This document shows positions 163 through 17,827 of a stretch of 17,827 nt of DNA, piece by piece. Positions within the stretch are counted from its first letter, which is position 1, and each line of letters begins with the position of its first letter. Origin of the DNA: Candidatus Thorarchaeota archaeon. Its GTDB lineage: Archaea > Asgardarchaeota > Thorarchaeia > Thorarchaeales > Thorarchaeaceae. Where the stretch lies: the NCBI GenBank assembly GCA_048882385.1, contig JBHLRQ010000067.1, forward strand, positions 1 to 17,827. The letters are read 5' to 3'. The notes below the pieces were generated by a model, which did no database searches, was not told where the DNA came from, and saw only the letters and a program-made list of their open reading frames with translations. The translations under genes and the position numbers were made by a program.

Positions 163-240
163 AGGACCACCAATGTAATGGAATTTACATGACAATAGGA
201 AATGTTCGTTATCGTTCATTCTCCTCAATTTGTGCCCCAG

Positions 241-255
241 AGAATGTCTTATATG
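241..255 (+). promoter_or_regulatory. BRE/TATA-like promoter for the CINP-like gene
   Basis: agaatgtcTTATATg, with the TATA-like box about 30 nt upstream of ATG 285. This fits a leaderless or short-leader mRNA. Confidence 0.45.
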
Positions 256-284
256 GGCAATTTGGCAGAGTCACATGGACAAAC

Positions 285-941
285 ATGGCACACTACCTAG
301 ATTCATTAGACGACCTCCGTGAGGGCCTTGATACCTTTGTCGAAAAATGGGCCAACATACAGAGGAAGTCTGTCAAGTCCATCCAAGCTCTTACAAACAC
401 TATCATGCAGATTGAGCATTTGGATGGTCCGTTGGGTAAGCTTGAAACTTTTCAAAATATTCGAGAGGATGCAAAGGGTATTCTACTTGTAAACCTTTAC
501 GACAGACTTGTGCCAGCTCTAGAGAGTTCCATTAGAGAGTTCACTAAGCTCATGCACATGTTCGAGAACCTTCGTCATACCTCCTCTAAGATTCAGACAT
601 TGACGGAAACCATGAGAGGAAATCTCACCGAGTCACCTGAACTTGAAGACCTGGTTGGATTTTTGGACCTCATCATGATTAGCGTTCGAGACATCCTGAA
701 TATGTATGAATCTGAGTTTCTAGTAAAGCTGACAATCTTCCGTGACTTCGAAGAAGGAGCCATTGAGATTGGTGTTGTCAGTAATTACCTTACAATCTGG
801 GGCATTGAACCCAACATTGAACAAAACGCAAGGGACAAACTCCTCAAAGATCTTGATGAACACGTTGAGCTACTACGGGATGTGTTTGCAGGAAAGACTG
901 GTATTAGAATTCCGGACTCGTACAAAAAGATTCAGCTCTAG
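285..941 (+). CDS. Alpha-helical protein resembling eukaryotic CINP / C1orf109 (AIRIM), the adaptors of the SPATA5-SPATA5L1 AAA+ ATPase complex
   Basis: The ORF runs 189-941, but ATG 285 (MAHYLD) is the likelier start given the TATA position. Motifs W-x(13)-N...LGKLETFQNIRE, ILNMYESEFLVKLTI and NYLTIWGIEPNIE resemble remembered C1orf109 and CINP segments. The CDS itself is well supported; the family call is inference. Confidence 0.6.
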   Translation: MAHYLDSLDDLREGLDTFVEKWANIQRKSVKSIQALTNTIMQIEHLDGPLGKLETFQNIREDAKGILLVNLYDRLVPALESSIREFTKLMHMFENLRHTSSKIQTLTETMRGNLTESPELEDLVGFLDLIMISVRDILNMYESEFLVKLTIFRDFEEGAIEIGVVSNYLTIWGIEPNIEQNARDKLLKDLDEHVELLRDVFAGKTGIRIPDSYKKIQL

Positions 942-3291: not shown

Positions 3292-6150
3292 TTAGGTTGA
3301 CATTCGTGCTGCAACAGCTTTTCTTATTTCCTCCGCAATGAGCACAAAGAATCCTAAAAGAATAATCTCAGAAATTTCAACAATTCCGAGAGGAACTAAC
3401 CTGAAAATTTCACTTAAGTAGGGAATCAAGAAGAGTATTCCAACCAGAAAGATGTCAACAATATACACTGCTAAAATGTATCTATTTCTAAACACACCCA
3501 TCTCACGGATTGATTTAGTCTGAGATCTGCAGTTTTGAACACTGAACCACTGGACTACGATCAAGGTGACAAACATCATGGTCCGTACTTTGTTTTGCGC
3601 CGCAATCAACTCACTCTCAGTCTGTGCACTCGTGATAAATCCTAGATTTTGGTAGTAGACAAGTAAGACCATTGCTGCCATCACTATTCCGTAGAATATT
3701 GATCTACTAAGAGTCTGACGCGAAAGAACTCTCTCTTTCAAGGATCCCGGTCCTTGATCCAACAATCCCTTTTCTTTAGGTTCAAGTGAAAGAGCAATGT
3801 CCAACATACCATCTGTTACAAGGTTTACCCAAAGAATCTGGAGAGGTAATAGAAGGACGAGATACTCTCCCGTGAATAAAATCAGTATGGATAGTATCAG
3901 AAAACTTTCCGCAAGATTTGTAGAGGTCAGGAATAATACCACTCTCTTCAACGAACTCAGAATATTGCGTCCTTCCTCAATTCCATCTACTACTGTCTCA
4001 AATCTCTCATCTTGAAGGACTACATCGGACGCTTCCTTTGCAATGTCCGTACCTGTTATGCCCATCGCAATACCTACATTTGCCTGCCGAAGCGCAGGAC
4101 TGTCGTTGACTCCATCTCCTGTCATACTCACAATTTTGCCGGAGTCTTGGAGTGCTTTTACAATTCGCAATTTATGAAAAGGATTGGTTCGTGCAAGAAC
4201 TGTAGCACCACCATCCAATGTAGCTTTGAGCTCTTCATCATCCAAGGCATCGATATCATCACCATTCAGTGCAAGGTCTCCACGATGAGAATCGAAAATT
4301 CCTACTTCCTTGCCGATTGCTTGGGCTGTTAATTCATTATCCCCTGTTATCATCAATACATCTATTCCGGCTCTATTACTCTTCTCGATATAATTGGCAA
4401 CACCCTCCCTTGGTGGATCATTTATCCCACAGATTCCGACAAACACCAAATCCTTCAAGTCATCATCTGAAATTCGCGTATGATCCTTGTGTACATATTT
4501 TACTGCGCAAGAAAGAACTCGGAGTCCTTGAGATGCAAATTCATTCACAGTATTCTCAGTTCCAGAAGGTTTGGATAGAAATGATTCGATTCTCTCGGGC
4601 GCTCCTTTTACAATCAAAAGGTTTGAGTCATCAGTTTTGAGCCTACGTCCTGATGTATGTAATGTAGCCATATACTTGCGGTCACTAGAGAATGGGATCT
4701 CAGCAATTCTTGGCCTAGCCTCATCAAGCACATACTTGTGGAGACCTGCTTTTTCTAAACTGACTAATAATGCAGCTTCAGTTGGGGATCCCCTGATTCG
4801 CCATTCACGCTCTTCTCCTGTGCATTTCCTTACAGGATCATCCTCATCCAAACATACGGAGTAGAGATCCGAATCGTTACATAGTGCAAAGTAAGAAAGA
4901 AGTTCCTCGAGGTCGGGAAATTCGTTAAGCCTATCTCCTTTGATAGGTTCATTGGATTCAGGATCTGTTTCGGGATCGATTTCTTCATGAAGTTCTTGTG
5001 AACGTAGGCATCCTGCTGGTCCGCATCCCTCCTTGAAGATATTCCCACTACTTGCATCGAACCCGGAACCACTTACCTCGTAGTAATGGTTTGGAGTGAA
5101 TATTCTTCGAACCATCATCTGGTTTCTCGTTAATGTACCCGTTTTGTCAGAACAAATAACATTGACCAACCCAAGTGTTTCTACGACTCCCAGATTTCGG
5201 ATGATGACCTTTTTTCGTGATAACCTGTAGACTCCGACCGATAATACAATTGTAATGACTGCAATGAGCCCCTCAGGAATTGCAGACACCAGTGCAGATA
5301 GAGCAAACAGAATGAACTCACTAAGTCCAACCTGAGATGGGATATCCCTGTAGAATCCTAAGAATAGAGTTGTAAAGAGAAACATAACTGCCAAAACAAT
5401 GAAGAAAATGCTTAGCCTTTCTAAACGTACCATGACAGTTGTTTTTTCTTTCTCTACCCCAAGTAGCTCTTTGTTTATTTCTCCAAGAACTGTTTCATCT
5501 CCAATTTTCTCAACGACGACTCTTGCTCTTCCTTCAGTAACATAAGAGCCTGCGAAAACCTGGTTTGTTTTTTCGTAATAATGGGGATTTTCTACAAGAC
5601 ATACCACGTCTTTCTTTATAGGTACACTTTCACCTGTGAGGAGGCTTTCATCAACATGAAAATTACTTTCAAAGACAACCCTACCATCCGCAGGGATCTT
5701 TTCTCCAGTTCGAAGAAGTAATAGATCACTTGGAACTATCTCAGATGATCGAATTTCAAGCTCTTCTCCATTTCTGACCACAATGGATTTTTCTTCAATG
5801 AGTTTCTTGACTGACTCAATTGTGTTCTCTGCTCTCCATTCCTGCACAAATCCAATTATCGAATTAATCAGGAGAATGATTGCTATTACAATTGTATCTT
5901 CGACATGATTTCCAATGAAAGAGATTGCAGCAGCAAGGACAAGAACATAGACAAGCGGCGACTTGAACTGTCGTAAAAACATGACTAGCGAACTGTCTCT
6001 CTTTTCCAATGTGAGTTTGTTCTCCCCGAATTCCTCCCGTTTCTGCAAGACTTCATCTTCACCGAGTCCTTCCGGATTAGTACCGAGACTTAGCAAGCAT
6101 TCACTGTAATCCACATGTTCTTCTTGAATTGTAGTCTTTTCTTTATCCAT
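3292..6150 (-). CDS. P-type ATPase, type IIA (SERCA-like, probably Ca2+-transporting)
   Basis: TGES, IPEGL, CSDKTGTLT (phosphorylated Asp), KGAPE, DPPR, MITGD, TGDGVND, TM5 STNLAE and TM6 QILWVNLVTDG. Confidence 0.95.
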   Translation of the reverse strand: MDKEKTTIQEEHVDYSECLLSLGTNPEGLGEDEVLQKREEFGENKLTLEKRDSSLVMFLRQFKSPLVYVLVLAAAISFIGNHVEDTIVIAIILLINSIIGFVQEWRAENTIESVKKLIEEKSIVVRNGEELEIRSSEIVPSDLLLLRTGEKIPADGRVVFESNFHVDESLLTGESVPIKKDVVCLVENPHYYEKTNQVFAGSYVTEGRARVVVEKIGDETVLGEINKELLGVEKEKTTVMVRLERLSIFFIVLAVMFLFTTLFLGFYRDIPSQVGLSEFILFALSALVSAIPEGLIAVITIVLSVGVYRLSRKKVIIRNLGVVETLGLVNVICSDKTGTLTRNQMMVRRIFTPNHYYEVSGSGFDASSGNIFKEGCGPAGCLRSQELHEEIDPETDPESNEPIKGDRLNEFPDLEELLSYFALCNDSDLYSVCLDEDDPVRKCTGEEREWRIRGSPTEAALLVSLEKAGLHKYVLDEARPRIAEIPFSSDRKYMATLHTSGRRLKTDDSNLLIVKGAPERIESFLSKPSGTENTVNEFASQGLRVLSCAVKYVHKDHTRISDDDLKDLVFVGICGINDPPREGVANYIEKSNRAGIDVLMITGDNELTAQAIGKEVGIFDSHRGDLALNGDDIDALDDEELKATLDGGATVLARTNPFHKLRIVKALQDSGKIVSMTGDGVNDSPALRQANVGIAMGITGTDIAKEASDVVLQDERFETVVDGIEEGRNILSSLKRVVLFLTSTNLAESFLILSILILFTGEYLVLLLPLQILWVNLVTDGMLDIALSLEPKEKGLLDQGPGSLKERVLSRQTLSRSIFYGIVMAAMVLLVYYQNLGFITSAQTESELIAAQNKVRTMMFVTLIVVQWFSVQNCRSQTKSIREMGVFRNRYILAVYIVDIFLVGILFLIPYLSEIFRLVPLGIVEISEIILLGFFVLIAEEIRKAVAARMST

Positions 6151-6195: not shown

Positions 6196-6226
6196 TTAAA
6201 AGACGCGCTTTTTGGCTCGCTTTTAA
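6196..6226 (-). promoter_or_regulatory. Inverted repeat (hairpin) overlapping the antiporter stop codon, possibly with an internal TATA box for the ATPase
   Basis: ttaaaag (6196-6202) pairs with cttttaa (6220-6226), with inner CG/GC pairs. On the minus strand TTTAAAT lies about 45 nt upstream of the ATPase ATG. Confidence 0.3.
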
Positions 6227-7947
6227 GAATCATCCTCTGGCGAAATTGTTTCCTCTTGCATCCGTATTCTGTTTGCGACTTCTTCAATCTCAGCTTCTAA
6301 ATCACTCTTGAGACCTTGAAAAGTTCCCTCTGAAATCTTACCTGAGTCAAACTGTTTCTGATAGAATTCAAGTTTTGTTCTATAAATTTCTTCTCGGAAT
6401 CCTAGCTCTCGCACTCTCGCTCTTCGTTCAGAAACAACTCTCCTGAGCTCGTCCTCAAGTTTGTAAATTTCTTCTTCAAGCTCTGCCTTGAGTCTACTGT
6501 ATAACGGGGTGTCAACTTTTCCCTCAGTATATCGATCGACCAAATGAAGAAGAGCCTGTCTTGTAGCATCTCTATGGACAGTGATTTCTTGAGCTCGATC
6601 CTGTTTTTCAACAAGCCCGAGAATATTTGCGAAGAATGAGGTTGACAATCCCTGAACAACGAGGCTCACAATCAGTACGATAAAAACTATGGCATAGATT
6701 GTCGGGACAACTGTGGAGATAGCTGTAACAAAACTGGCTTCTGATGAATAGTGAATGATAACCGTCACTGCAATAGCTGCAAGCGCTGCACTGGCAACCC
6801 CTTTTATTCCCGCCCAGCTGAGGAAAAACCTCTCCTTGAAACCTATTGTTCTATCTCCTGCGGTCACGATAAAAACAGAGATTGGTCTTGCTACCAGAAT
6901 GACTAGTACAGAAGTCAACAGTCCAAGTCCAAGGATACCAGGATTCGCAATTATGAAAGTTATTGTTTCAGTTGAAGGGTCGCCCTCAATAAGTGGGACA
7001 CTAAGTGTGTACCCCAACAGGATGAAAACCACGATCTCAAAAAAGAATGATACGTTCTTCATTACACCTCTCATCGATCTTTGCGGGAGGGGCTCTAGTC
7101 CGATCATTCTTGCATTTGCCATAAATATTCCTGCAAACACAGCAGCTAGCGCACCTGGATGTATTGCAAAGACTGTAAAGAGCTCTCCCAATCCATAAGC
7201 TAGGAAAGGAGTTGTAGCAGTCAGAATTGTAACATTTGTGTCATCTCCTGCTTTAGGGATTGCCCATCCTATAATTCGCGCAACAATGTATCCTAAAGCA
7301 ACACCAAGACCCATACTTGCTAGAAATTCGCCAGCTATGAGTCCCCAGTTTGTACCACCAGTCAAGTTTGCTAAAGATGCAATCACTATTGGCTCAAAAA
7401 CTAAAATAACAAGAATTACTGATGTTGCGTCATTGAATACTGCCTCACCTTCCAATATTGAAAAGAGTTTCCTTTTGACTCTGACACCTCCTGATTCTAA
7501 TACAGAGAATAGGGCGGCTGGATCAGTTGGAGCTAGTATTGCTCCAATTAGAAATGCAGCAATCCCTACTGGGATACCTATAGCTGCTGTTGATGCCTCT
7601 ATTGCAAAACCACCGATTAAAGCTGTTGCGAAGACTCCTGCTGTTGCCAATAACATCACATTTTGTATCGACAATCGTAATTCTCGAAGGTTCAATGTGA
7701 GACCTGCATAGAAAAGAACTGTTGCAAGTGTTAATTGAGCAATAAAATCAAATCCAGCAATCTGTACTAGCTGAGTACCAGGATTCAGTGAAATCAAAAC
7801 ACGACCCATGGCAAGACCGGTCAAGACCAATGGAATAGGATGAGGAACCCGGTATCTTTCAGCGGCTTTTGCTATTGCTACTCCAATGATAAGGATTCCA
7901 GCTATCAAAACAAGAATTGTTGTAGAAAGCTCTTCTCCCTGCATCAA
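6223..7947 (-). CDS. Cation:proton antiporter, CPA1/NhaP type, with a C-terminal coiled-coil tail
   Basis: APTDPAA, ILEGEAVFNDA, VARP, WAGIKG and SLVVQG motifs, about 13 TM helices and a charged helical tail of about 130 aa. Start is TTG 7947 or ATG 7944. Confidence 0.92.
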   Translation of the reverse strand: MMQGEELSTTILVLIAGILIIGVAIAKAAERYRVPHPIPLVLTGLAMGRVLISLNPGTQLVQIAGFDFIAQLTLATVLFYAGLTLNLRELRLSIQNVMLLATAGVFATALIGGFAIEASTAAIGIPVGIAAFLIGAILAPTDPAALFSVLESGGVRVKRKLFSILEGEAVFNDATSVILVILVFEPIVIASLANLTGGTNWGLIAGEFLASMGLGVALGYIVARIIGWAIPKAGDDTNVTILTATTPFLAYGLGELFTVFAIHPGALAAVFAGIFMANARMIGLEPLPQRSMRGVMKNVSFFFEIVVFILLGYTLSVPLIEGDPSTETITFIIANPGILGLGLLTSVLVILVARPISVFIVTAGDRTIGFKERFFLSWAGIKGVASAALAAIAVTVIIHYSSEASFVTAISTVVPTIYAIVFIVLIVSLVVQGLSTSFFANILGLVEKQDRAQEITVHRDATRQALLHLVDRYTEGKVDTPLYSRLKAELEEEIYKLEDELRRVVSERRARVRELGFREEIYRTKLEFYQKQFDSGKISEGTFQGLKSDLEAEIEEVANRIRMQEETISPEDDS

Positions 7948-10182: not shown

Positions 10183-10229
10183 CCTAGAACACAAATTGCC
10201 ATCAAATACAGACTCTGGAGAGTTTGATA

Positions 10230-11258
10230 ATGGGTTCTGAAGAGCAAGCCGCAGACATATTCAAGTGTACTGTCTGCAATGGCAACGTAAAGACCGGACC
10301 CGACGACGTTGTAATCACTTGTACATATTGCGGTAGTACTACCACAATAGAAGGCAAGGTGATAGGCGATCATCTCATGGAAACCGCTGTGGACTCAGAC
10401 GTGCGAACAGAGGGGTTCCGTAACTTTTTGGATAAGAATAAAGGGATGAACAAATCTCTAGTGAAAGGTGCCCAAATAGTTGAGAATCGTCTAATCTATG
10501 TGCCTGTATGGACAGCTAAGGTCAAAGCTGATTCCTACTACAAAGGTTACAAGACAGTCCAAGTTCCGGTACAGAAAACGAGAACTGTTCGGGATTCTGA
10601 TGGAAACACAAGAACAGAAACCTACACGGACTACGAGACTGGATATGTTCCTGTTCAAGATGAGATTCATTCAGATACAAACGAACCATTCCTGGCTAGG
10701 AAAGGTGCAAGGTTCTATGGTCTTGAAGGTTATCTTGACACCATCAACCTGAGTGAAACAGTTCCTTATGATTTTGAGAAGATTAAGGACCTCGAACCAA
10801 CTATGCTGAACGCTGAGATTGGACAAGAGGAGTTCGAGCTAGCTGCCCACAGTCGTGTGTCTGATAGACATAGGTCTCAAGCGGCGAGTGGTCTGACCGA
10901 ATTGTTTGACTGCCGAACAACCACAAGTGTTAGAGATACAACCTATCTTCAAGCACCATTTTCCTTGATACGCTATAAATTCCAAGGTGACCTTTACAAA
11001 GCAGCGATTGATGGTCACACTGGCAAGGTTGTGCAGGGAGAAATTCCGATTACAATGGGTCAACGTGTTATGTGGACCCTGTTGGGACTTATTGGAATAA
11101 TAGTTGCTGGTGTCGGAGGAGAACTCCTAATGATGGGTATGAGTGCTGACGAGATGCTGTTTACTGTTGGCGGAATTGCATCAGTTATCGTTGGAATAGT
11201 TTTGACATTCGCTGGATTTAGAGTGCTGATAATGACTCAGCGAACAAAGAAGGGGTGA
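10230..11258 (+). CDS. Zinc-ribbon membrane protein, Bacillus YdjG-like (paralog 1)
   Basis: N-terminal CTVC...CTYCG, then IYVPVW and YKAAIDGHTGKVVQGEIPI, and two C-terminal TM helices. SD spacing favours ATG 10230 over TTG 10224. Confidence 0.7.
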   Translation: MGSEEQAADIFKCTVCNGNVKTGPDDVVITCTYCGSTTTIEGKVIGDHLMETAVDSDVRTEGFRNFLDKNKGMNKSLVKGAQIVENRLIYVPVWTAKVKADSYYKGYKTVQVPVQKTRTVRDSDGNTRTETYTDYETGYVPVQDEIHSDTNEPFLARKGARFYGLEGYLDTINLSETVPYDFEKIKDLEPTMLNAEIGQEEFELAAHSRVSDRHRSQAASGLTELFDCRTTTSVRDTTYLQAPFSLIRYKFQGDLYKAAIDGHTGKVVQGEIPITMGQRVMWTLLGLIGIIVAGVGGELLMMGMSADEMLFTVGGIASVIVGIVLTFAGFRVLIMTQRTKKG

Positions 11259-11262
11259 TATC

Positions 11263-12234
11263 ATGGCAAGATGTAATTTCTGCGATGCAGATTTTCAAAC
11301 TGGTCCCGGTGATCTTTTGCTAGTTTGTCCTTATTGCGGGACAGCTCAGACAACTGATGGTGAAAAATTCACGGACCACTATATGATAAGAGTCCATTTT
11401 GACCAGCATGAGTCACAGACCACCCTACTTGATTGGGTTTCCAAACAGCTTGGCACTCCTGAAGATTTACCTGTGAAGGCAAAATTCCTACAGGCTGAAC
11501 AGATTTGGTATCCATTCTGGATCAGCAGAGTCGATGCAGACACAACCTATCGAGGACTTGGAAAGGACGCTCATTTTCATAATGAATGGCCCCAACGTAG
11601 AGGTGCCTACAAGAATATTGAGTACTTTTGGAAACCTGAATCTGGTCGATTTACTCGAAGGCATGAAATTAACATAGCCGCAGTCAAAGAGATTGACCCA
11701 GATGTTCGTGGTCATCCAATACCAACTCGAGCAAAGGAATTCTTTAGTCATGCACATGCAGAAGAATTCGATGGCAAAGTGCTCCACAGTAACATGACCA
11801 TGGAACAGGCAAGGAGCATGGCTGAGCAGATTGCAAAGGACAAACAGACTCAGCTTGTGCTTCAAGAAGTCGATAAGATCGAATCTAGAGAAGACAATCT
11901 TGAGGTCGGTGAGACCTTCCTCATTCATGTACCTGTCTGGGAACTTGAATATCGATACGGGAATCGGAAATACAAAGCATCTGTTTCAGCTCCAACCGGT
12001 TATGTGATTGAGAGCAAATATCCAAGATCGATGGCTTTCAGAGCTGCAGGGATTGGAGTTGGCCTCATCATGCTTTTGATTGGCGGTGGTTTAATCACAC
12101 TTGCACTGGACTTATTGGGTTTCGGTCCAATTCTCCCAGGTGGAGGTCTGATTTCAGGCGGACTACTACTCATTATAGGGCTAATCTTGATGTATAAGGG
12201 TGCTTCTCGTAAGGAAGCCAAAGAGGAAGTGTAG
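11263..12234 (+). CDS. Zinc-ribbon membrane protein, YdjG-like (paralog 2)
   Basis: CNFC...CPYCG, WYPFW, HVPVWELEYRY, VSAPTGYVI and two C-terminal TM helices. SD-like GGGGTGA overlaps the upstream stop codon. Confidence 0.7.
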   Translation: MARCNFCDADFQTGPGDLLLVCPYCGTAQTTDGEKFTDHYMIRVHFDQHESQTTLLDWVSKQLGTPEDLPVKAKFLQAEQIWYPFWISRVDADTTYRGLGKDAHFHNEWPQRRGAYKNIEYFWKPESGRFTRRHEINIAAVKEIDPDVRGHPIPTRAKEFFSHAHAEEFDGKVLHSNMTMEQARSMAEQIAKDKQTQLVLQEVDKIESREDNLEVGETFLIHVPVWELEYRYGNRKYKASVSAPTGYVIESKYPRSMAFRAAGIGVGLIMLLIGGGLITLALDLLGFGPILPGGGLISGGLLLIIGLILMYKGASRKEAKEEV

Positions 12235-13462: not shown

Positions 13463-13613
13463 AGTGGACTAAATTTGCTAAGTCTATTATCCAGCATTCT
13501 TTTCCTTTCGAATGAATTGCGTAAGAGGTGAGGGAGATATCCGAAAGTATCCTTTTTCTAGAAAGACATATAGTGCTGACGAATTACTCGTCTTCAATCA
13601 CGGCGGGAGCTCC

Positions 13614-15239
13614 TTGAACGAATCCTCTGAAGCGAAAGGACATGAAGTAATTCTAAATGAGTCCGATTCAGAGGCAAGATCTATTTTTACTAAACTGATT
13701 GACTGGTTTCATTCAAATCCTGTGCCTGTTACACTCTTCATTGTATCTGTCATTACAACCGCAATTTCTTGTGCTTACTACATCAGCACCATGCTTGGTC
13801 TTGGAAATCCGGGTTTCACTCTTGATGACTCATGGATTCATCTACAATTCGCTCGGACAATATATGAAGGAACCCCCTGGGAGTATTCACCTAGTTATCC
13901 TAGTACAGGATCTACAAGTCCCCTATGGTCAATCCTTCTCTCAGTCATCTTCTTCTTCACATCTGATACAATCTCAGTTGTCTGGGGAGTCCTAATGATT
14001 TCAATACTCTTCTTCATTGCTTGTTCGTTTCTTGTTGGCTATTTAATTCAAGCATATACAGAAAGTTCTCTTTGGGGAATTGTAGGAATTCTGGGATTTG
14101 TAATTCTCCCAAGGAATACCTGGCTGATGCTATCTGGAATGGAAACCCCACTCTTCATGTTCATACTTCTTTTCTCAATTTATCTTCTTGATAGAACCGA
14201 TCTCAAAGCTGACTTGTTACTTGGAGTGTTTGCGGGACTTGCGTATCTCTCGAGACCTGAGGGAGTGCTTATTGCAGTCCTACTCATTCCGTTCCGATTT
14301 CTCATGCTTAGTTACAAACGACAAGTCAATCGAAAACGAATTCTGACATTGATCATTTCAGGGATTGTTGCCATAATTATTGTACTCCCATGGATTCTCC
14401 ACTGTATCAATGTTACAGGTCTACCTCTTCCAGACACCTTCTATGCAAAGGTCCATTCCCCAACAGATGTTGAAAAGGAAGCATGGGACATCTGGTGGTA
14501 CTTTTTCGTAAGAGAAATGTATTTTCTATTATTCGGAATATCTGCAGGAGTCTTCCTTCTATTGAAAGGGAAACCATTTCCGTGGATTCTGGCAGTCTCT
14601 CTAACCATACTCTATAGACTCTCCGCACCTTATGCATCACTCATCAATAATGCTAGATACTTGGTACCAATCTTTGATTTATTTCTAATAGCAGCTGTTG
14701 TCTTTGCTGCATGGATCATTGAAGCTTCATTTGAGAAGCTTTTGAAAGTGAAAGGTACGATGGACGTAAGATACCTCTCTGTGATTGCAATCAGTATTTT
14801 ACTATTAGTCCCTCTCATCCCTTCCTATGTATCACAGGCTGACTATTTCACAAAATCAGTCAGGACAATTAATGACATGCATGTCGGAATTGGAACTTGG
14901 CTTGCCGAAAACACTCCCGAAGATGCAGTTTTTGCCACTCATGATGCTGGTGCTATTAGGTATATATCAGGTAGGAGAATGATAGATTTAGCAGGTCTTC
15001 TCAGTCCTGACATTATCCATGGAAATATGTCGTCTACTGAAACATTGAGGTACCTGCGGCAACAAGGCTGCAACTACTTTGTATTCTTTGATGAATTGTT
15101 CATATGGTGGACCTTATTTTTGCCCTCGAATGCTTACGAAAGGATATACACAGTTCATATTCCTCCTGAGATATATGCAAGTGCTGGGAGAGATACAATG
15201 TCTGTTTTCCAGATCTATTGGGAAAATACAACTTACTAA
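13614..15239 (+). CDS. GT-C fold membrane glycosyltransferase (PMT/AftB-like)
   Basis: LDDSWIHLQFAR, GSTSPLW, SGMETPL, SRPEG, PLPDTFYAK and DAGAIRY...IDLAGL, with many TM helices and a soluble C-terminal domain. The ORF is open from 13512. TTG 13614 is preferred because of GGGAG at 13605-13609 and a promoter-like gaaagacatatag at 13561-13573. Confidence 0.8.
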   Translation: MNESSEAKGHEVILNESDSEARSIFTKLIDWFHSNPVPVTLFIVSVITTAISCAYYISTMLGLGNPGFTLDDSWIHLQFARTIYEGTPWEYSPSYPSTGSTSPLWSILLSVIFFFTSDTISVVWGVLMISILFFIACSFLVGYLIQAYTESSLWGIVGILGFVILPRNTWLMLSGMETPLFMFILLFSIYLLDRTDLKADLLLGVFAGLAYLSRPEGVLIAVLLIPFRFLMLSYKRQVNRKRILTLIISGIVAIIIVLPWILHCINVTGLPLPDTFYAKVHSPTDVEKEAWDIWWYFFVREMYFLLFGISAGVFLLLKGKPFPWILAVSLTILYRLSAPYASLINNARYLVPIFDLFLIAAVVFAAWIIEASFEKLLKVKGTMDVRYLSVIAISILLLVPLIPSYVSQADYFTKSVRTINDMHVGIGTWLAENTPEDAVFATHDAGAIRYISGRRMIDLAGLLSPDIIHGNMSSTETLRYLRQQGCNYFVFFDELFIWWTLFLPSNAYERIYTVHIPPEIYASAGRDTMSVFQIYWENTTY

Positions 15240-16444
15240 TCTGTGTTTAACACACCTCTGACATATGACACAAGATGATTATAGAGGTTCATTGAATCCT
15301 CAACATCATGGAAACCTCCCGTATAGTTTTCACTACTTCCTCCACCTTTTCCACCTTGGTTTAATACTGCTTCAGAGATGTAGTATTTCGCATCATGTTT
15401 TGTATGATATGTGCGGAGGATCACCTGTGCCTTCTTACCTGGCGCAAAGAGAAGTAGGATAACAGGTTCAGAGAAAGATAGTTGGTTGGCGAGGTTCTTG
15501 AGAGTCTTTGACTCAAAACCCGGAAGATACTCATGTCTGAATTCAACCGGACCTACCTTTTCCATATTTGCTCCTTTGGTTACGAGTTGGTTAATCTTCT
15601 CAATCATCAGATTCTTTTCATCAACTGCCATCTTTGCCCTATCAAGAATAGCTCCTATCTGTTCAATCTCAAATGGGTAGGTGTACTTTCGTTGAAGAAC
15701 ACTGTTGTATAGATCTCTAGTCATAGATAATGCCTTTTCTCCAGAAACGAACTCGATTTTCGTATTGTGGTCTACATGTTTAACATCAGTCACCTTGAAG
15801 AATCCAATCTGACCAGTTCTTTCAACATGAATCCCTGAACAGGCAGATCTGTCCAGTTCTCCCACCTTCACTATTCGCAAAATATTATGTTTATTGATCA
15901 GTCCTTCCCGTGCTCTGACGCTCGGATCAATTTTGTCAGCATCTGCAAATTCAGTCTGAACAGGAAAATCGAGACTAATGATTCGTTGAACATCTTTCTC
16001 AGCAACAAAAACATCTCTGAATGACAAATTGACGTTCATAATCTCAACACTCCCGTGTTCACCATCTATCCACAAACCACCGATTGCAAGGTCAGGAACC
16101 ATTTTTTTCAGAGATGATACAAAGATATGCTCAGATGTGTGATTCTTCATCATCGCAGTACGCCACTCAATGTCAATGTCAAGTTGGCCCTCAGACTTCA
16201 CTGAAACTGGACTATCAGAAACGAGCAAAATCTTCTCTGAATCAATTATTGTGTCACGGATTGAAACATGTCTGTTTTTAACAGAGAGGGTCCCTCTATC
16301 CCCTGCTTGACCACCTCCAGCTGGTCTAATCACATCTTCCCTGATTTGAATTTGAAAATGGTCCTTCGTTTGTCTAATGTCTTCAACAAACACCATGAAG
16401 GATGTTGTATATGGTTCAATCCAATATGGCGGTCTATTGTTCAA
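15236..16444 (-). CDS. Free-standing alanyl-tRNA editing protein (AlaX, long form with C-Ala/DHHA1 domain)
   Basis: PAGGGQAGDRG, the zinc-binding motifs HTSEH (HxxxH) and CSGIH (CxxxH), TGQIG, and C-terminal GGKGGG. TTG start. The stop overlaps the convergent GT stop. Confidence 0.9.
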   Translation of the reverse strand: MNNRPPYWIEPYTTSFMVFVEDIRQTKDHFQIQIREDVIRPAGGGQAGDRGTLSVKNRHVSIRDTIIDSEKILLVSDSPVSVKSEGQLDIDIEWRTAMMKNHTSEHIFVSSLKKMVPDLAIGGLWIDGEHGSVEIMNVNLSFRDVFVAEKDVQRIISLDFPVQTEFADADKIDPSVRAREGLINKHNILRIVKVGELDRSACSGIHVERTGQIGFFKVTDVKHVDHNTKIEFVSGEKALSMTRDLYNSVLQRKYTYPFEIEQIGAILDRAKMAVDEKNLMIEKINQLVTKGANMEKVGPVEFRHEYLPGFESKTLKNLANQLSFSEPVILLLFAPGKKAQVILRTYHTKHDAKYYISEAVLNQGGKGGGSSENYTGGFHDVEDSMNLYNHLVSYVRGVLNTD

Positions 16445-16532
16445 CAGTTTTCACATGTATTGAGTATTTACTCATTGTCAAAACTGTTTCCACTACTAGC
16501 ACCAAAATCGGACTCCTTATTTTCACCTTCGC

Positions 16533-16546
16533 CGAAAGCGATATAG
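16533..16546 (+). promoter_or_regulatory. BRE/TATA-like promoter for the SNAP-like gene
   Basis: cgaaagcGATATAG lies about 43 nt upstream of ATG 16589, with SD-like GAGG at 16576-16579. Confidence 0.4.
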
Positions 16547-16588
16547 CGGAACTCAAGTATTTCGTGTTTAGAATAGAGGCATACTGAC

Positions 16589-17827
16589 ATGTTCAAGTTC
16601 ATGAAATCCGATCCAGTCAAGAAGGCTAAGAAACACATCGAGAAAGCACTGATTGAAATTGAGGAAGGATATCCAGAGTTTGCTAGTGTGGAATATGAGA
16701 AGGCTGCGCGTCGATTTCTTGAAGTAGAGCAGACAGATTTTGCAGTCAAATATTTTCGAGAAGCCGCCTATTATGCACTTGAGAAAAATGACCATTTTCG
16801 GTGCGCTGAGATGAAAACAGCTGGCGCAGAGTGTCTTCTCTTGGAAGGTAGATATGATGAAGCTGGAGGTCTTTATTCCGAATCCTCAGATCATTGGTAT
16901 AGGGAGAAGAAATCAAAGGAAGCGAATCGAGCACTTGGAATCGCAATTATTGGTTATCTCGCTGCACGTAATTTTGACACAGCTACTAATGTAATGCGAA
17001 AAGCCGAGAAACGTTTGAAGGACACCTCATCTAAGAAAGATTCAATCTATTCCCTGGCTGAACTTTGTGTAAGAATTCTATGCGAAGGTGAAGATGTTAA
17101 GAAAGACACTTTTGAAGATGTGGCTAAACGAGCAAAGCCCAATGAACCTGAACAATCGCTCGTAACATTCGTTACCGAGTCCACAAGATTGGCAATTGAT
17201 ACTGAAGTATCATTAGAGTGGGCTGGAGCGCCGCAGGAAGAAGTGAAAGTAAAGGAGCCACTCGAACTTGAAATCCGCTATAAATGTCCTGCTGCGGTTC
17301 GTATTGTGGATCATCGATTATCCCTCTCCAATAGTGTCATCGTCATAAAGGAACCTGATTATTCTCAAACTCCCGCGAAAGAAGAATCATGGCTACTTGA
17401 ATTCAAACCTGTATTGAGTGGCTCAGGTAGTATTGGCCCTTTCACAGTTACACTTGAGGGTGACAAAGTTCTGGTCAATAAACATAGTAACACAATTGAG
17501 TTCTCAATAGCGAGAGCTCCTTCACATATCACATTAGATGTCAAACCTGAGAGAGTTTCATGTAATCTAGGAGAGGAAGCTGTACTCGAAGTCACAGTTC
17601 TAAATGAAGGCGATGGTCCTGCTGAGAATGTAAATGTAGTAGCAGAGCTTTCTGATGGTTTGGAAATCTCTCTTGGAAATGAAGAGAAGCTGATAAACTT
17701 TCTAGGTAGCGGAGAAAATGTCAGATTCCAGCTTTTCGTACGTGCGGTGGGTCAGGGAGAAGAATTAGCTACGATAAAAGCTGTTGACGGGCGATCTGGG
17801 ACAGAGGTTGTGAAAACCTCAATGGTC
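16589..17827 (+). CDS. TPR/SNAP-like alpha-solenoid followed by two Ig-like beta-sandwich domains; runs off the window and is absent from the ORF track
   Basis: 413 stop-free codons, translated by hand: MFKFMKSDPVKKAKKHIEKALIEIEEGYPEFASVEYEKAARRF...GRYDEAGGLY...IIGYLAARNFDTA...EPLELEIRY...GSGSIGPFTVTL...LGEEAVLEVTVLNEGDGPAENVNVVAELSDGL...LGSGENVRFQLFVRAV...VVKTSMV. No signal peptide or TM segment is visible. Confidence 0.85.
   Translation, partial: MFKFMKSDPVKKAKKHIEKALIEIEEGYPEFASVEYEKAARRFLEVEQTDFAVKYFREAAYYALEKNDHFRCAEMKTAGAECLLLEGRYDEAGGLYSESSDHWYREKKSKEANRALGIAIIGYLAARNFDTATNVMRKAEKRLKDTSSKKDSIYSLAELCVRILCEGEDVKKDTFEDVAKRAKPNEPEQSLVTFVTESTRLAIDTEVSLEWAGAPQEEVKVKEPLELEIRYKCPAAVRIVDHRLSLSNSVIVIKEPDYSQTPAKEESWLLEFKPVLSGSGSIGPFTVTLEGDKVLVNKHSNTIEFSIARAPSHITLDVKPERVSCNLGEEAVLEVTVLNEGDGPAENVNVVAELSDGLEISLGNEEKLINFLGSGENVRFQLFVRAVGQGEELATIKAVDGRSGTEVVKTSMV

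Follow-up and report, generated by a model that had tools for sequence, protein, structure and literature searches.

A conserved Asgard archaeal protein family joining a SNAP-like helical solenoid to two Ig-like domains

We analyzed a 17,827-nucleotide stretch of DNA from a Candidatus Thorarchaeota archaeon (contig JBHLRQ010000067.1 of assembly GCA_048882385.1; hereafter “the window”), which is the whole of contig C67 in a 3.7-Mb, 95.3% complete genome. The gene considered here is the last one in the window, an open reading frame (ORF) at 16589–17827 (+) that starts with ATG, runs for 413 codons and is still open at the 3′ end of the contig. A first-pass annotation, made from the DNA letters and their translations, had spotted an ORF with its stop beyond the window and had likened its N-terminal part to gamma-SNAP. 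The missing end lies on another contig of the assembly: the final 77 bases of C67 recur without mismatch, on the opposite strand, at the end of contig C33, and reading on into C33 adds three codons and a stop, yielding a 416-amino acid (aa) protein that ends in ..MVRVG. This join is supported by protein length, since most of the 120 homologs listed are also 416 aa long, and by gene order, since the C33 gene P0002 (243 aa) adjoins the ORF downstream and in convergent orientation in 59 of 68 related loci. The remaining nine loci break off within the gene. The window (16589–17827) thus carries residues 1–413 of 416.

On its 5′ side, the ORF is separated by a 144-bp intergenic spacer (16445–16588) from a divergent gene for an AlaX-like editing-domain protein (15236–16444, −; Pfam tRNA_SAD match), which lies upstream of the ORF in 65 of the 68 related loci. 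The spacer presumably holds a promoter region shared by the two genes. The other genes of the window include an archaeal Nre, a P-type ATPase and a Trp/Tyr-type class I tRNA synthetase, which together with the AlaX-like gene indicate an archaeal source for this DNA.

We then established how widely the gene is distributed. The window protein, searched against 5.8 billion proteins, returned 178 homologs at E ≤ 1e-3, with 53–93% identity to the query among the 120 matches listed and the closest ones labeled Candidatus Thorarchaeota. Of 301 genomes sampled from the phylum (Asgard; 90 of them high-quality), 92 proved to hold the gene when searched with a profile of 87 Thorarchaeial sequences, including 72 of 76 in the window’s own family; this profile also gave weaker matches to similar-sized ORFs in other Asgard families. 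The fourteen of these non-Thorarchaeial ORFs that we retrieved are colinear with the Thorarchaeial protein end to end, for a family length of 412–460 aa. An Asgard-wide profile that includes them matched 198 of the 301 genomes and 68 of the 90 high-quality ones, usually with one copy per genome and mostly over the full length among the 150 matches listed. Broken down by the coded families of this genome set, the gene is present in f1 (73/76), f2 (1/1), f9 (61/68), f12 (17/19), f21 (3/3), f22 (21/21) and f24 (7/7), and was not found with the Asgard-wide profile in f3 (0/4), f7 (0/5), f14 (0/11), f20 (0/7) and f27 (0/11), among others. Source names among the 120 best matches of a non-Thorarchaeial profile are all Asgard (Loki-, Hermod-, Hod-, Heimdall-, Thor- and Promethearchaeota). 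Members are labeled “hypothetical” or “TPR repeat protein” by their sources, and NCBIfam offered no model for the window protein, for P0002 or for four of five relatives tested, the fifth giving only far-sub-threshold TPR-type matches. Overall, the ORF is a real, conserved archaeal gene, and its products form an unnamed, uncharacterized and widely conserved Asgard family.

The predicted fold divides the protein into a helical N-terminal half and a beta-sheet C-terminal half. An AlphaFold2 model of the full-length protein, computed from the 87-sequence alignment, has a mean predicted local distance difference test score (pLDDT) of 91.4 and a predicted TM-score (pTM) of 0.75, and the N-terminal domain (N-domain) folded alone reaches a pLDDT of 94.6. 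Residues 9–204 (16613–17200, +) form an alpha-solenoid in the model, a single continuous right-handed stack of ten antiparallel helices: seven 17-residue helices (9–25, 29–45, 49–65, 69–85, 89–105, 109–125 and 129–145) joined by 3-residue loops, with hairpins repeating every 40 residues, and three shorter helices that complete the stack at residue 204. The first-pass annotation had drawn an N-terminal solenoid at 16589–17200, i.e., residues 1–204, and this coincides exactly with the model’s helical domain. The repeated helical hairpins of the solenoid, together with matches to TPR-family profiles, place the N-domain in the TPR clan. Helix 1 is preceded by a conserved motif at residues 1–9 (16589–16615, +; Thorarchaeial consensus M-F-x-F-L-K-x-D-P), in which D8 and P9 never vary across the 87 sequences and M1, F4 and K6 almost never do; the pLDDT is below 50 for residues 1–5. 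Similar hydrophobic/basic motifs ending in ..DP occur in other Asgard lineages, and in 50 of 87 members residues 1–21 give a sub-cut-off match to Pfam DUF6435. A G27-Y28-P29 in the first inter-helix loop is also conserved.

The C-terminal half consists of two Ig-like beta-sandwiches, the first at residues 206–310 (17204–17518, +; delimited from the model strands, the alignment and Foldseek matches to tandem Ig-like domains) with a family-invariant G283-P284, and the second at residues 314–413 (17528–17827, +; extending to residue 416 on C33), which is CARDB/DUF11-like and has invariant N339, G363 and K367. These five positions are the most conserved columns of the Asgard-wide alignment. In the window protein, DUF11 scores 17.5 bits over residues 321–361, below its cut-off of 24.6, and 27 of 87 members match it at E ≤ 0.01. 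Further weak or sub-threshold Pfam matches in this half include BatD, TRAP_beta, Transglut_C, Alpha_adaptinC2 and TRAPPC13_C, and its Atlas neighbors, which serve as leads only, are CARDB/DUF11/TRAP_beta/Transglut_C clusters (scores 0.84–0.86). Foldseek matches to the whole model are likewise tandem Ig-like domains, headed by a chain of yeast TRAPPII and including ciliary central-apparatus proteins, the CEP192 SPD-2 domain, transglutaminase C-terminal barrels, RbmA and integrin legs. Since many archaeal CARDB/DUF11-domain proteins are secreted or surface-bound, the CARDB/DUF11/BatD-type signals could hint at a similar destination for this protein. We consider this highly unlikely, however: the window protein contains no transmembrane segment (highest 19-residue Kyte–Doolittle mean, 1.05) and, by eye and hydropathy, no hydrophobic N-terminal stretch, and its N-terminus is instead a conserved charged motif that runs directly into helix 1.

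The central question is what the solenoid is related to. Searches that start from the family consistently point to SNAPs. Against PDB sequences, gamma-SNAP (2ifu) was the sole match below E 0.01 for the Thorarchaeial full-length profile (E 7.5e-4), and it led the list for the Thorarchaeial N-domain profile (E 6.3e-5, next match at E 0.07). The Asgard-wide profile ranked gamma-SNAP (1.6e-9) and Sec17 (2.6e-9) first, followed by an engineered consensus TPR (1.4e-7) and alpha-SNAP (5e-5), with KLC, Hop and Rap at 1e-4 to 1e-3. Structural comparison agreed. The N-domain model shows the twisted sheet of antiparallel hairpins that marks the SNAP fold, and its Foldseek list is headed by Sec17 chains (ranks 1–8; best E 2.6e-4, query TM-score (TMq) 0.72–0.73, root-mean-square deviation (rmsd) 3.9 over 205 columns), followed by HAP40 (ranks 9–10; TMq 0.65–0.69), gamma-SNAP and alpha-SNAP. 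Generic TPR proteins set in only at rank 26, with LGN (E 2.1e-3, TMq 0.55), so that the comparison with Sec17 and alpha/gamma-SNAP structures suggested at first pass placed all of these, and HAP40, above every generic TPR protein.

A third line of evidence came from searching 1.84 billion representative proteins with the N-domain profile, which returned 28 matches at E ≤ 1e-3. We scanned 17 of these against Pfam; those set aside were a single 3266-aa protein and ten that are short fragments or belong to the family itself. SNAP was the best Pfam family, at or above cut-off (26–232 bits), in 12 of the 17; the other five were two giant TPR_12 proteins, P0133 (410 aa, TPR plus BatD), P0137 (420 aa, TRAP_beta plus a weak SNAP match) and P0149 (260 aa, uninformative). 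When only matches outside the solenoid-Ig family are counted, SNAP was the top family in 11 of 14. Eukaryotic SNAPs make up most of the distant matches; those that bear names come from Mastigamoeba and three chytrids, and one is labeled “soluble NSF attachment protein, partial”. Within the family itself, Pfam SNAP (PF14938; 282 model positions, cut-off 25 bits) was the commonest family match at E ≤ 0.01, in 58 of 87 Thorarchaeial members (best E 1.4e-7) and 14 of 24 Asgard-wide members, and one non-Thorarchaeial member reached 34.9 bits. At the level of the best domain, a SNAP hidden Markov model (HMM) matched 214 of 221 family members at E ≤ 1e-3, the E-values being those for that small set. 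Comparisons by hhalign with a nine-sequence SNAP set seemed strong at first sight (probability 97.3% for the Thorarchaeial N-domain and 98.3% for the Asgard-wide profile), but the controls described below weaken them. By both profile and shape, SNAPs are thus the nearest characterized relatives of the solenoid.

The details of the alignment bear on two further statements of the first-pass annotation. It had cited two local parallels with gamma-SNAP, the second of which (..FDEA..) does fall within a significant alignment (HMMER domain 2, query residues 12–100 against chain residues 94–183). The first, to the gamma-SNAP N-terminus, corresponds to HMMER domain 1 but is weak (4.1 and 7.4 bits, independent E-values 150 and 32), and the two stand in different registers. 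It had also suggested that the middle repeats of SNAP are missing here. We found instead a continuous ten-helix solenoid and bimodal SNAP-HMM offsets, around +80 to +90 in 99 members (Thorarchaeial median 85) and around +10 in 82 members (non-Thorarchaeial median 12), which indicates an ambiguity in repeat register rather than a deletion.

The preference for SNAPs is modest and runs one way, and a series of controls weighs against giving it more meaning than that. At the profile level, the gamma-SNAP resemblance noted at first pass stood up, with 2ifu the best PDB match of all three profiles, but the window protein alone scores only 11.9 bits on Pfam SNAP (E 0.16), below the cut-off and below its equally sub-threshold scores for GET4 (18.5), TPR_12 (17.6) and DUF11. 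It is the 10th of 11 PF14938 matches in its own genome, and three better-scoring ones are plain TPR proteins whose TPR_12 scores lie far above their SNAP scores. Of 14 control prokaryote genomes, 10 likewise give PF14938 matches, in two cases over the cut-off. In the reciprocal direction, an hhalign SNAP profile scored single family N-domains at 19.7–68.4 (window protein, 48.2) and generic TPR proteins of the same genome at 30.2–56.8, i.e., no better for the family than for TPR proteins at large. The Thorarchaeial N-domain profile scored single SNAPs at 25.6–57.4 and generic TPR proteins at 21.4–42.6, and the three SNAPs chosen independently of our own search (25.6–38.9) lie inside the generic range. 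One of 24 reversed-sequence controls reached 47.8 (90% probability), which shows that the composition of helical repeats is enough to produce scores of this size. Almost no SNAP signal is present in the four f22 sequences of alignment A4 (probability 1–9%), and the nearest named Atlas clusters, again leads only, are archaeal TPR proteins (Bathyarchaeota, Thorarchaeota and Methanobacteriota; scores 0.86–0.89) with both TPR and SNAP Pfam matches. Seen from SNAP, the solenoid-Ig family is one TPR-like group among many.

These controls are what a competing explanation would draw on, namely that the SNAP likeness is a general likeness among long-hairpin TPR proteins, that the N-domain is no closer to SNAP than to TPR_12-type proteins, and that the family is an ordinary TPR-plus-Ig scaffold. 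Beyond the indiscriminate firing of PF14938, the lack of preference in the SNAP profile, the reversed control and the mixed TPR/SNAP character of the Atlas neighbors, 39 of 87 members match TPR_12 at E ≤ 0.01, the best of them at 3.8e-7, close to the best for SNAP, and a generic 290-aa TPR protein encoded in the same genome gives 94.8% hhalign probability with the Asgard-wide profile. We accordingly do not treat hhalign as decisive for SNAP kinship. Against this explanation, PDB profiles, Foldseek (with the best TM-scores of its list) and the 1.84-billion-protein search all rank SNAPs above the far more numerous TPR proteins. The outcome that the first-pass annotation had named as speaking against its proposal, best hits to generic TPR, Rpn or MalT-type repeats with no preference for SNAP, was therefore not seen in any of the three family-outward searches, although the preference disappeared in the reverse direction. 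On balance, the SNAP resemblance is beyond chance in searches starting from the family, and we regard a purely generic TPR likeness as a serious but less probable account, one that we would not bet on and would not dismiss.

If the resemblance is accepted, it can be asked whether the protein works as a SNAP, i.e., whether it docks an AAA+ ATPase of Cdc48/NSF type onto coiled-coil complexes resembling SNAREs, marking an archaeal membrane-fusion or disassembly system. SNAPs being its nearest characterized relatives, the wide occurrence of the family in Asgard archaea and the two Cdc48-type ATPases with CDC48_N domains in the genome (contigs C35 and C114) would all suit such a role. However, ATPases of the same type occur in four control archaea, so that their presence is unspecific, and NSF proper is not told apart from Cdc48 here. 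Several features that define a SNAP are missing. After ten helices, ending at residue 204 in the model, two Ig-like sandwiches stand in place of the SNAP C-terminal part, with its helical bundle and NSF-activating residues; in alpha-SNAP, according to PMC2139964, loss of the last 10 residues or the substitution L294A abolishes NSF stimulation. SNAPs also bind a four-helix SNARE bundle on a concave basic face and touch the membrane with a hydrophobic loop near the N-terminus; the conserved features of this region in the window protein are G27-Y28-P29 and the N-terminal hydrophobic/basic motif. No SNARE-domain (PF05739) match exceeded the cut-off of 26.8 in this 95.3%-complete genome, where the best reached 17.2 bits, and sub-cut-off matches of this kind are also present in 11 of 14 control genomes. 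No conserved ATPase or coiled-coil neighbor was seen in loci outside Thorarchaeia. A functional SNAP counterpart thus appears quite improbable. The first-pass proposal of a SNAP-related archaeal protein and trafficking signature is partly supported, in that SNAPs are the nearest characterized relatives; the protein is a new Asgard scaffold with a SNAP-type solenoid, not a demonstrated SNAP or trafficking marker.

The whole-model structural matches raise another possibility, an archaeal relative of TRAPP-specific subunits (TRAPPC9/10-type solenoid plus Ig, or TRAPPC13/Trs65) that would work with the Bet3-like TRAPP proteins of Thorarchaeia. The best whole-model Foldseek match is indeed chain A of yeast TRAPPII (7u06_A, E 3.1e-9), with 7u05_C also listed, but TMq is only 0.28 and the rmsd 19 Å. 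Pfam TRAPPC13_C is matched by two of 24 Asgard-wide members at E ≤ 0.01, one of them at 25.4 bits against a cut-off of 27.9; this relative thus stays below threshold, and the domain is absent from the window protein. Two Bet3-like TRAPP-domain ORFs do lie in the genome, about 2.5 kb apart on contig C93 (2679–3074, −, and 5545–5919, −; 37.8 and 24.7 bits), a spacing that recurs in many genomes of the family. The ranges, however, do not fit: TRAPP-domain proteins occur in f1 (72/76), f2 (1/1) and f16 (2/5) and in none of the genomes of f9 (0/68), f22 (0/21), f12 (0/19) and f24 (0/7), where the solenoid-Ig family is nearly universal. On this mismatch we rejected an obligate TRAPP role, and we attach very little credence to TRAPP kinship as a whole.

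Several other genes of this genome touch on the same systems. P0002 (contig C33, 28080–28808, +; L002:754–1485), which is convergent with the ORF beyond the end of the window, encodes a 243-aa all-helical protein whose only Pfam match is SNAP (29.2 bits, cut-off 25; residues 18–81), and its family profile has alpha-SNAP as first PDB match (E 1.3e-3). Its distribution among the 301 Asgard genomes, with finds only in f1 (70/76) and f2 (1/1), nearly coincides with that of the Bet3-like TRAPP proteins. An obligate pairing of P0002 with the ORF product is not claimed, the solenoid-Ig family being far wider in range and the profile–profile similarity weak (48% probability). On contig C66 (L008:1483–3021, +), a 513-aa protein has SNAP as its best Pfam match (38.2 bits), along with a match to DHR-2 Lobe A of DOCK exchange factors (28.6 bits, cut-off 26), and matches none of the ordinary TPR families. 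On contig C7, a 290-aa TPR_12 protein (L005:1192–2061, −) and a 237-aa Ras/Arf-like small GTPase (L005:2178–2888, −) are encoded co-directionally, the TPR_12 gene directly downstream.

Gene neighborhood, often a guide to function, was of little help and was dropped as such. In Thorarchaeia, the whole region around the gene is syntenic across the 68 related loci, so adjacency says little about function there. In 13 loci from other Asgard families, no neighbor was common across lineages, which offers no hint of a partner and counts against an adaptor role; the neighbors scanned are lineage-specific and metabolic (nucleoside/AMP phosphorylase-like, nitroreductase, S-adenosylmethionine (SAM) synthetase, radical SAM, aldo-keto reductase, metallo-beta-lactamase fold and nucleotidyl transferase).

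The window holds further genes of interest in their own right. At 189–941 (+), a 250-aa ORF has a sub-threshold Pfam match (23.1 bits, cut-off 27; residues 51–181) to the C1orf109-like ribosome-biogenesis protein, a family known as a eukaryotic partner of a Cdc48-like ATPase. Two adjacent ORFs of 344 and 323 aa at 10224–11258 (+) and 11263–12234 (+) have no Pfam family; their counterparts in related Thorarchaeial loci share one blastp cluster and are likely paralogs, conserved in 40 and 41 of the 68 loci, respectively, at 63–92% identity. A 575-aa ORF at 13512–15239 (+), also without a Pfam family, is matched in 33 of the 68 loci. Finally, the Na+/H+ exchanger encoded at 6223–7947 (−) has a C-terminal extension with weak coiled-coil-type matches to GvpG and CdvA, both sub-cut-off.

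Taken together, our favored reading, which we consider probable if by no means secure, is that the window gene encodes a soluble cytoplasmic Asgard protein in which a SNAP-type TPR-clan solenoid and two CARDB/DUF11-type Ig domains form a two-ended adaptor or scaffold, rather than a working SNAP of an NSF–SNARE system. The data directly establish the gene and how it is completed, how conserved and widespread it is, its fold, its lack of transmembrane segments and the place of SNAPs among its nearest relatives, whereas every binding step and the cellular role are inferred. Specifically, one partner may be gripped by a helical or extended segment in the grooved face of the solenoid, the Ig domains would engage a second partner or a surface, and the conserved hydrophobic/basic ..DP motif at the N-terminus could serve as a docking or membrane-touching element.

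A bolder interpretation is that this Asgard-wide family is the archaeal sister, or near-ancestor, of eukaryotic SNAPs. Before eukaryotes, it might have acted as an adaptor for a Cdc48-type AAA+ ATPase on helical-bundle substrates, with the Ig domains later shed and the NSF-activating tail gained. We hold this to be improbable, yet it would be of consequence if true. To our knowledge, SNAPs belong to those components of the membrane-fusion cycle that are regarded as specific to eukaryotes, and no origin for them is known; SNAP would then be an Asgard-derived signature protein, and the family a first archaeal handle on the origin of the NSF–SNAP–SNARE cycle. We found no paper linking Asgard archaea with Sec17, alpha-/gamma-SNAP or PF14938, or Thorarchaeota with SNARE and NSF, although supplementary tables of Asgard signature-protein catalogs may list the family. 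Even if the kinship proves to be only generic TPR likeness, the protein is widely conserved, with about two thirds of the sampled Asgard genomes holding it, and its build, a solenoid followed by Ig domains, is unusual. Members labeled Lokiarchaeota mean that it could be studied in cultured Asgard strains, provided that these carry the gene.

Among known systems, SNAPs themselves (Sec17, alpha-/beta-/gamma-SNAP) share with the N-domain the stacked antiparallel hairpins and a period of about 40 residues. They differ in extent, with PDB chains of 292–307 residues and a Pfam model of 282 positions compared to ten helices in about 200 residues here, in the ambiguous register of the alignment (about +10 or about +85), and in having an NSF-activating C-terminal part where this protein has two Ig-like domains. 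HAP40, which descended from SNAPs, also resembles the N-domain in its SNAP-like fold, and it is bound, by the titles of its entries, to huntingtin and not to NSF, so that a SNAP-like fold can serve as a plain scaffold; it is, however, an animal protein without Ig domains. TPR_12-type proteins (kinesin light chain, LGN, Rap phosphatases) belong to the same clan, have a similar repeat length and represent the second-commonest repeat family match in the family, but they rank below SNAPs in all three family-outward searches and none has a C-terminal Ig pair. The specific subunits of TRAPPII/III follow the same plan of helical repeats and then Ig-like sandwiches, but they are far larger, match at a TM-score of just 0.28 and belong to a system whose distribution the family does not follow. 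The C-terminal half, in turn, gives weak or sub-threshold matches to CARDB/DUF11/BatD/TRAP_beta domains and has structural matches to tandem beta-sandwiches. Such Ig-like domains are usually found in surface or secreted proteins, whereas here they stand behind a solenoid, and the protein has neither a signal nor a membrane segment.

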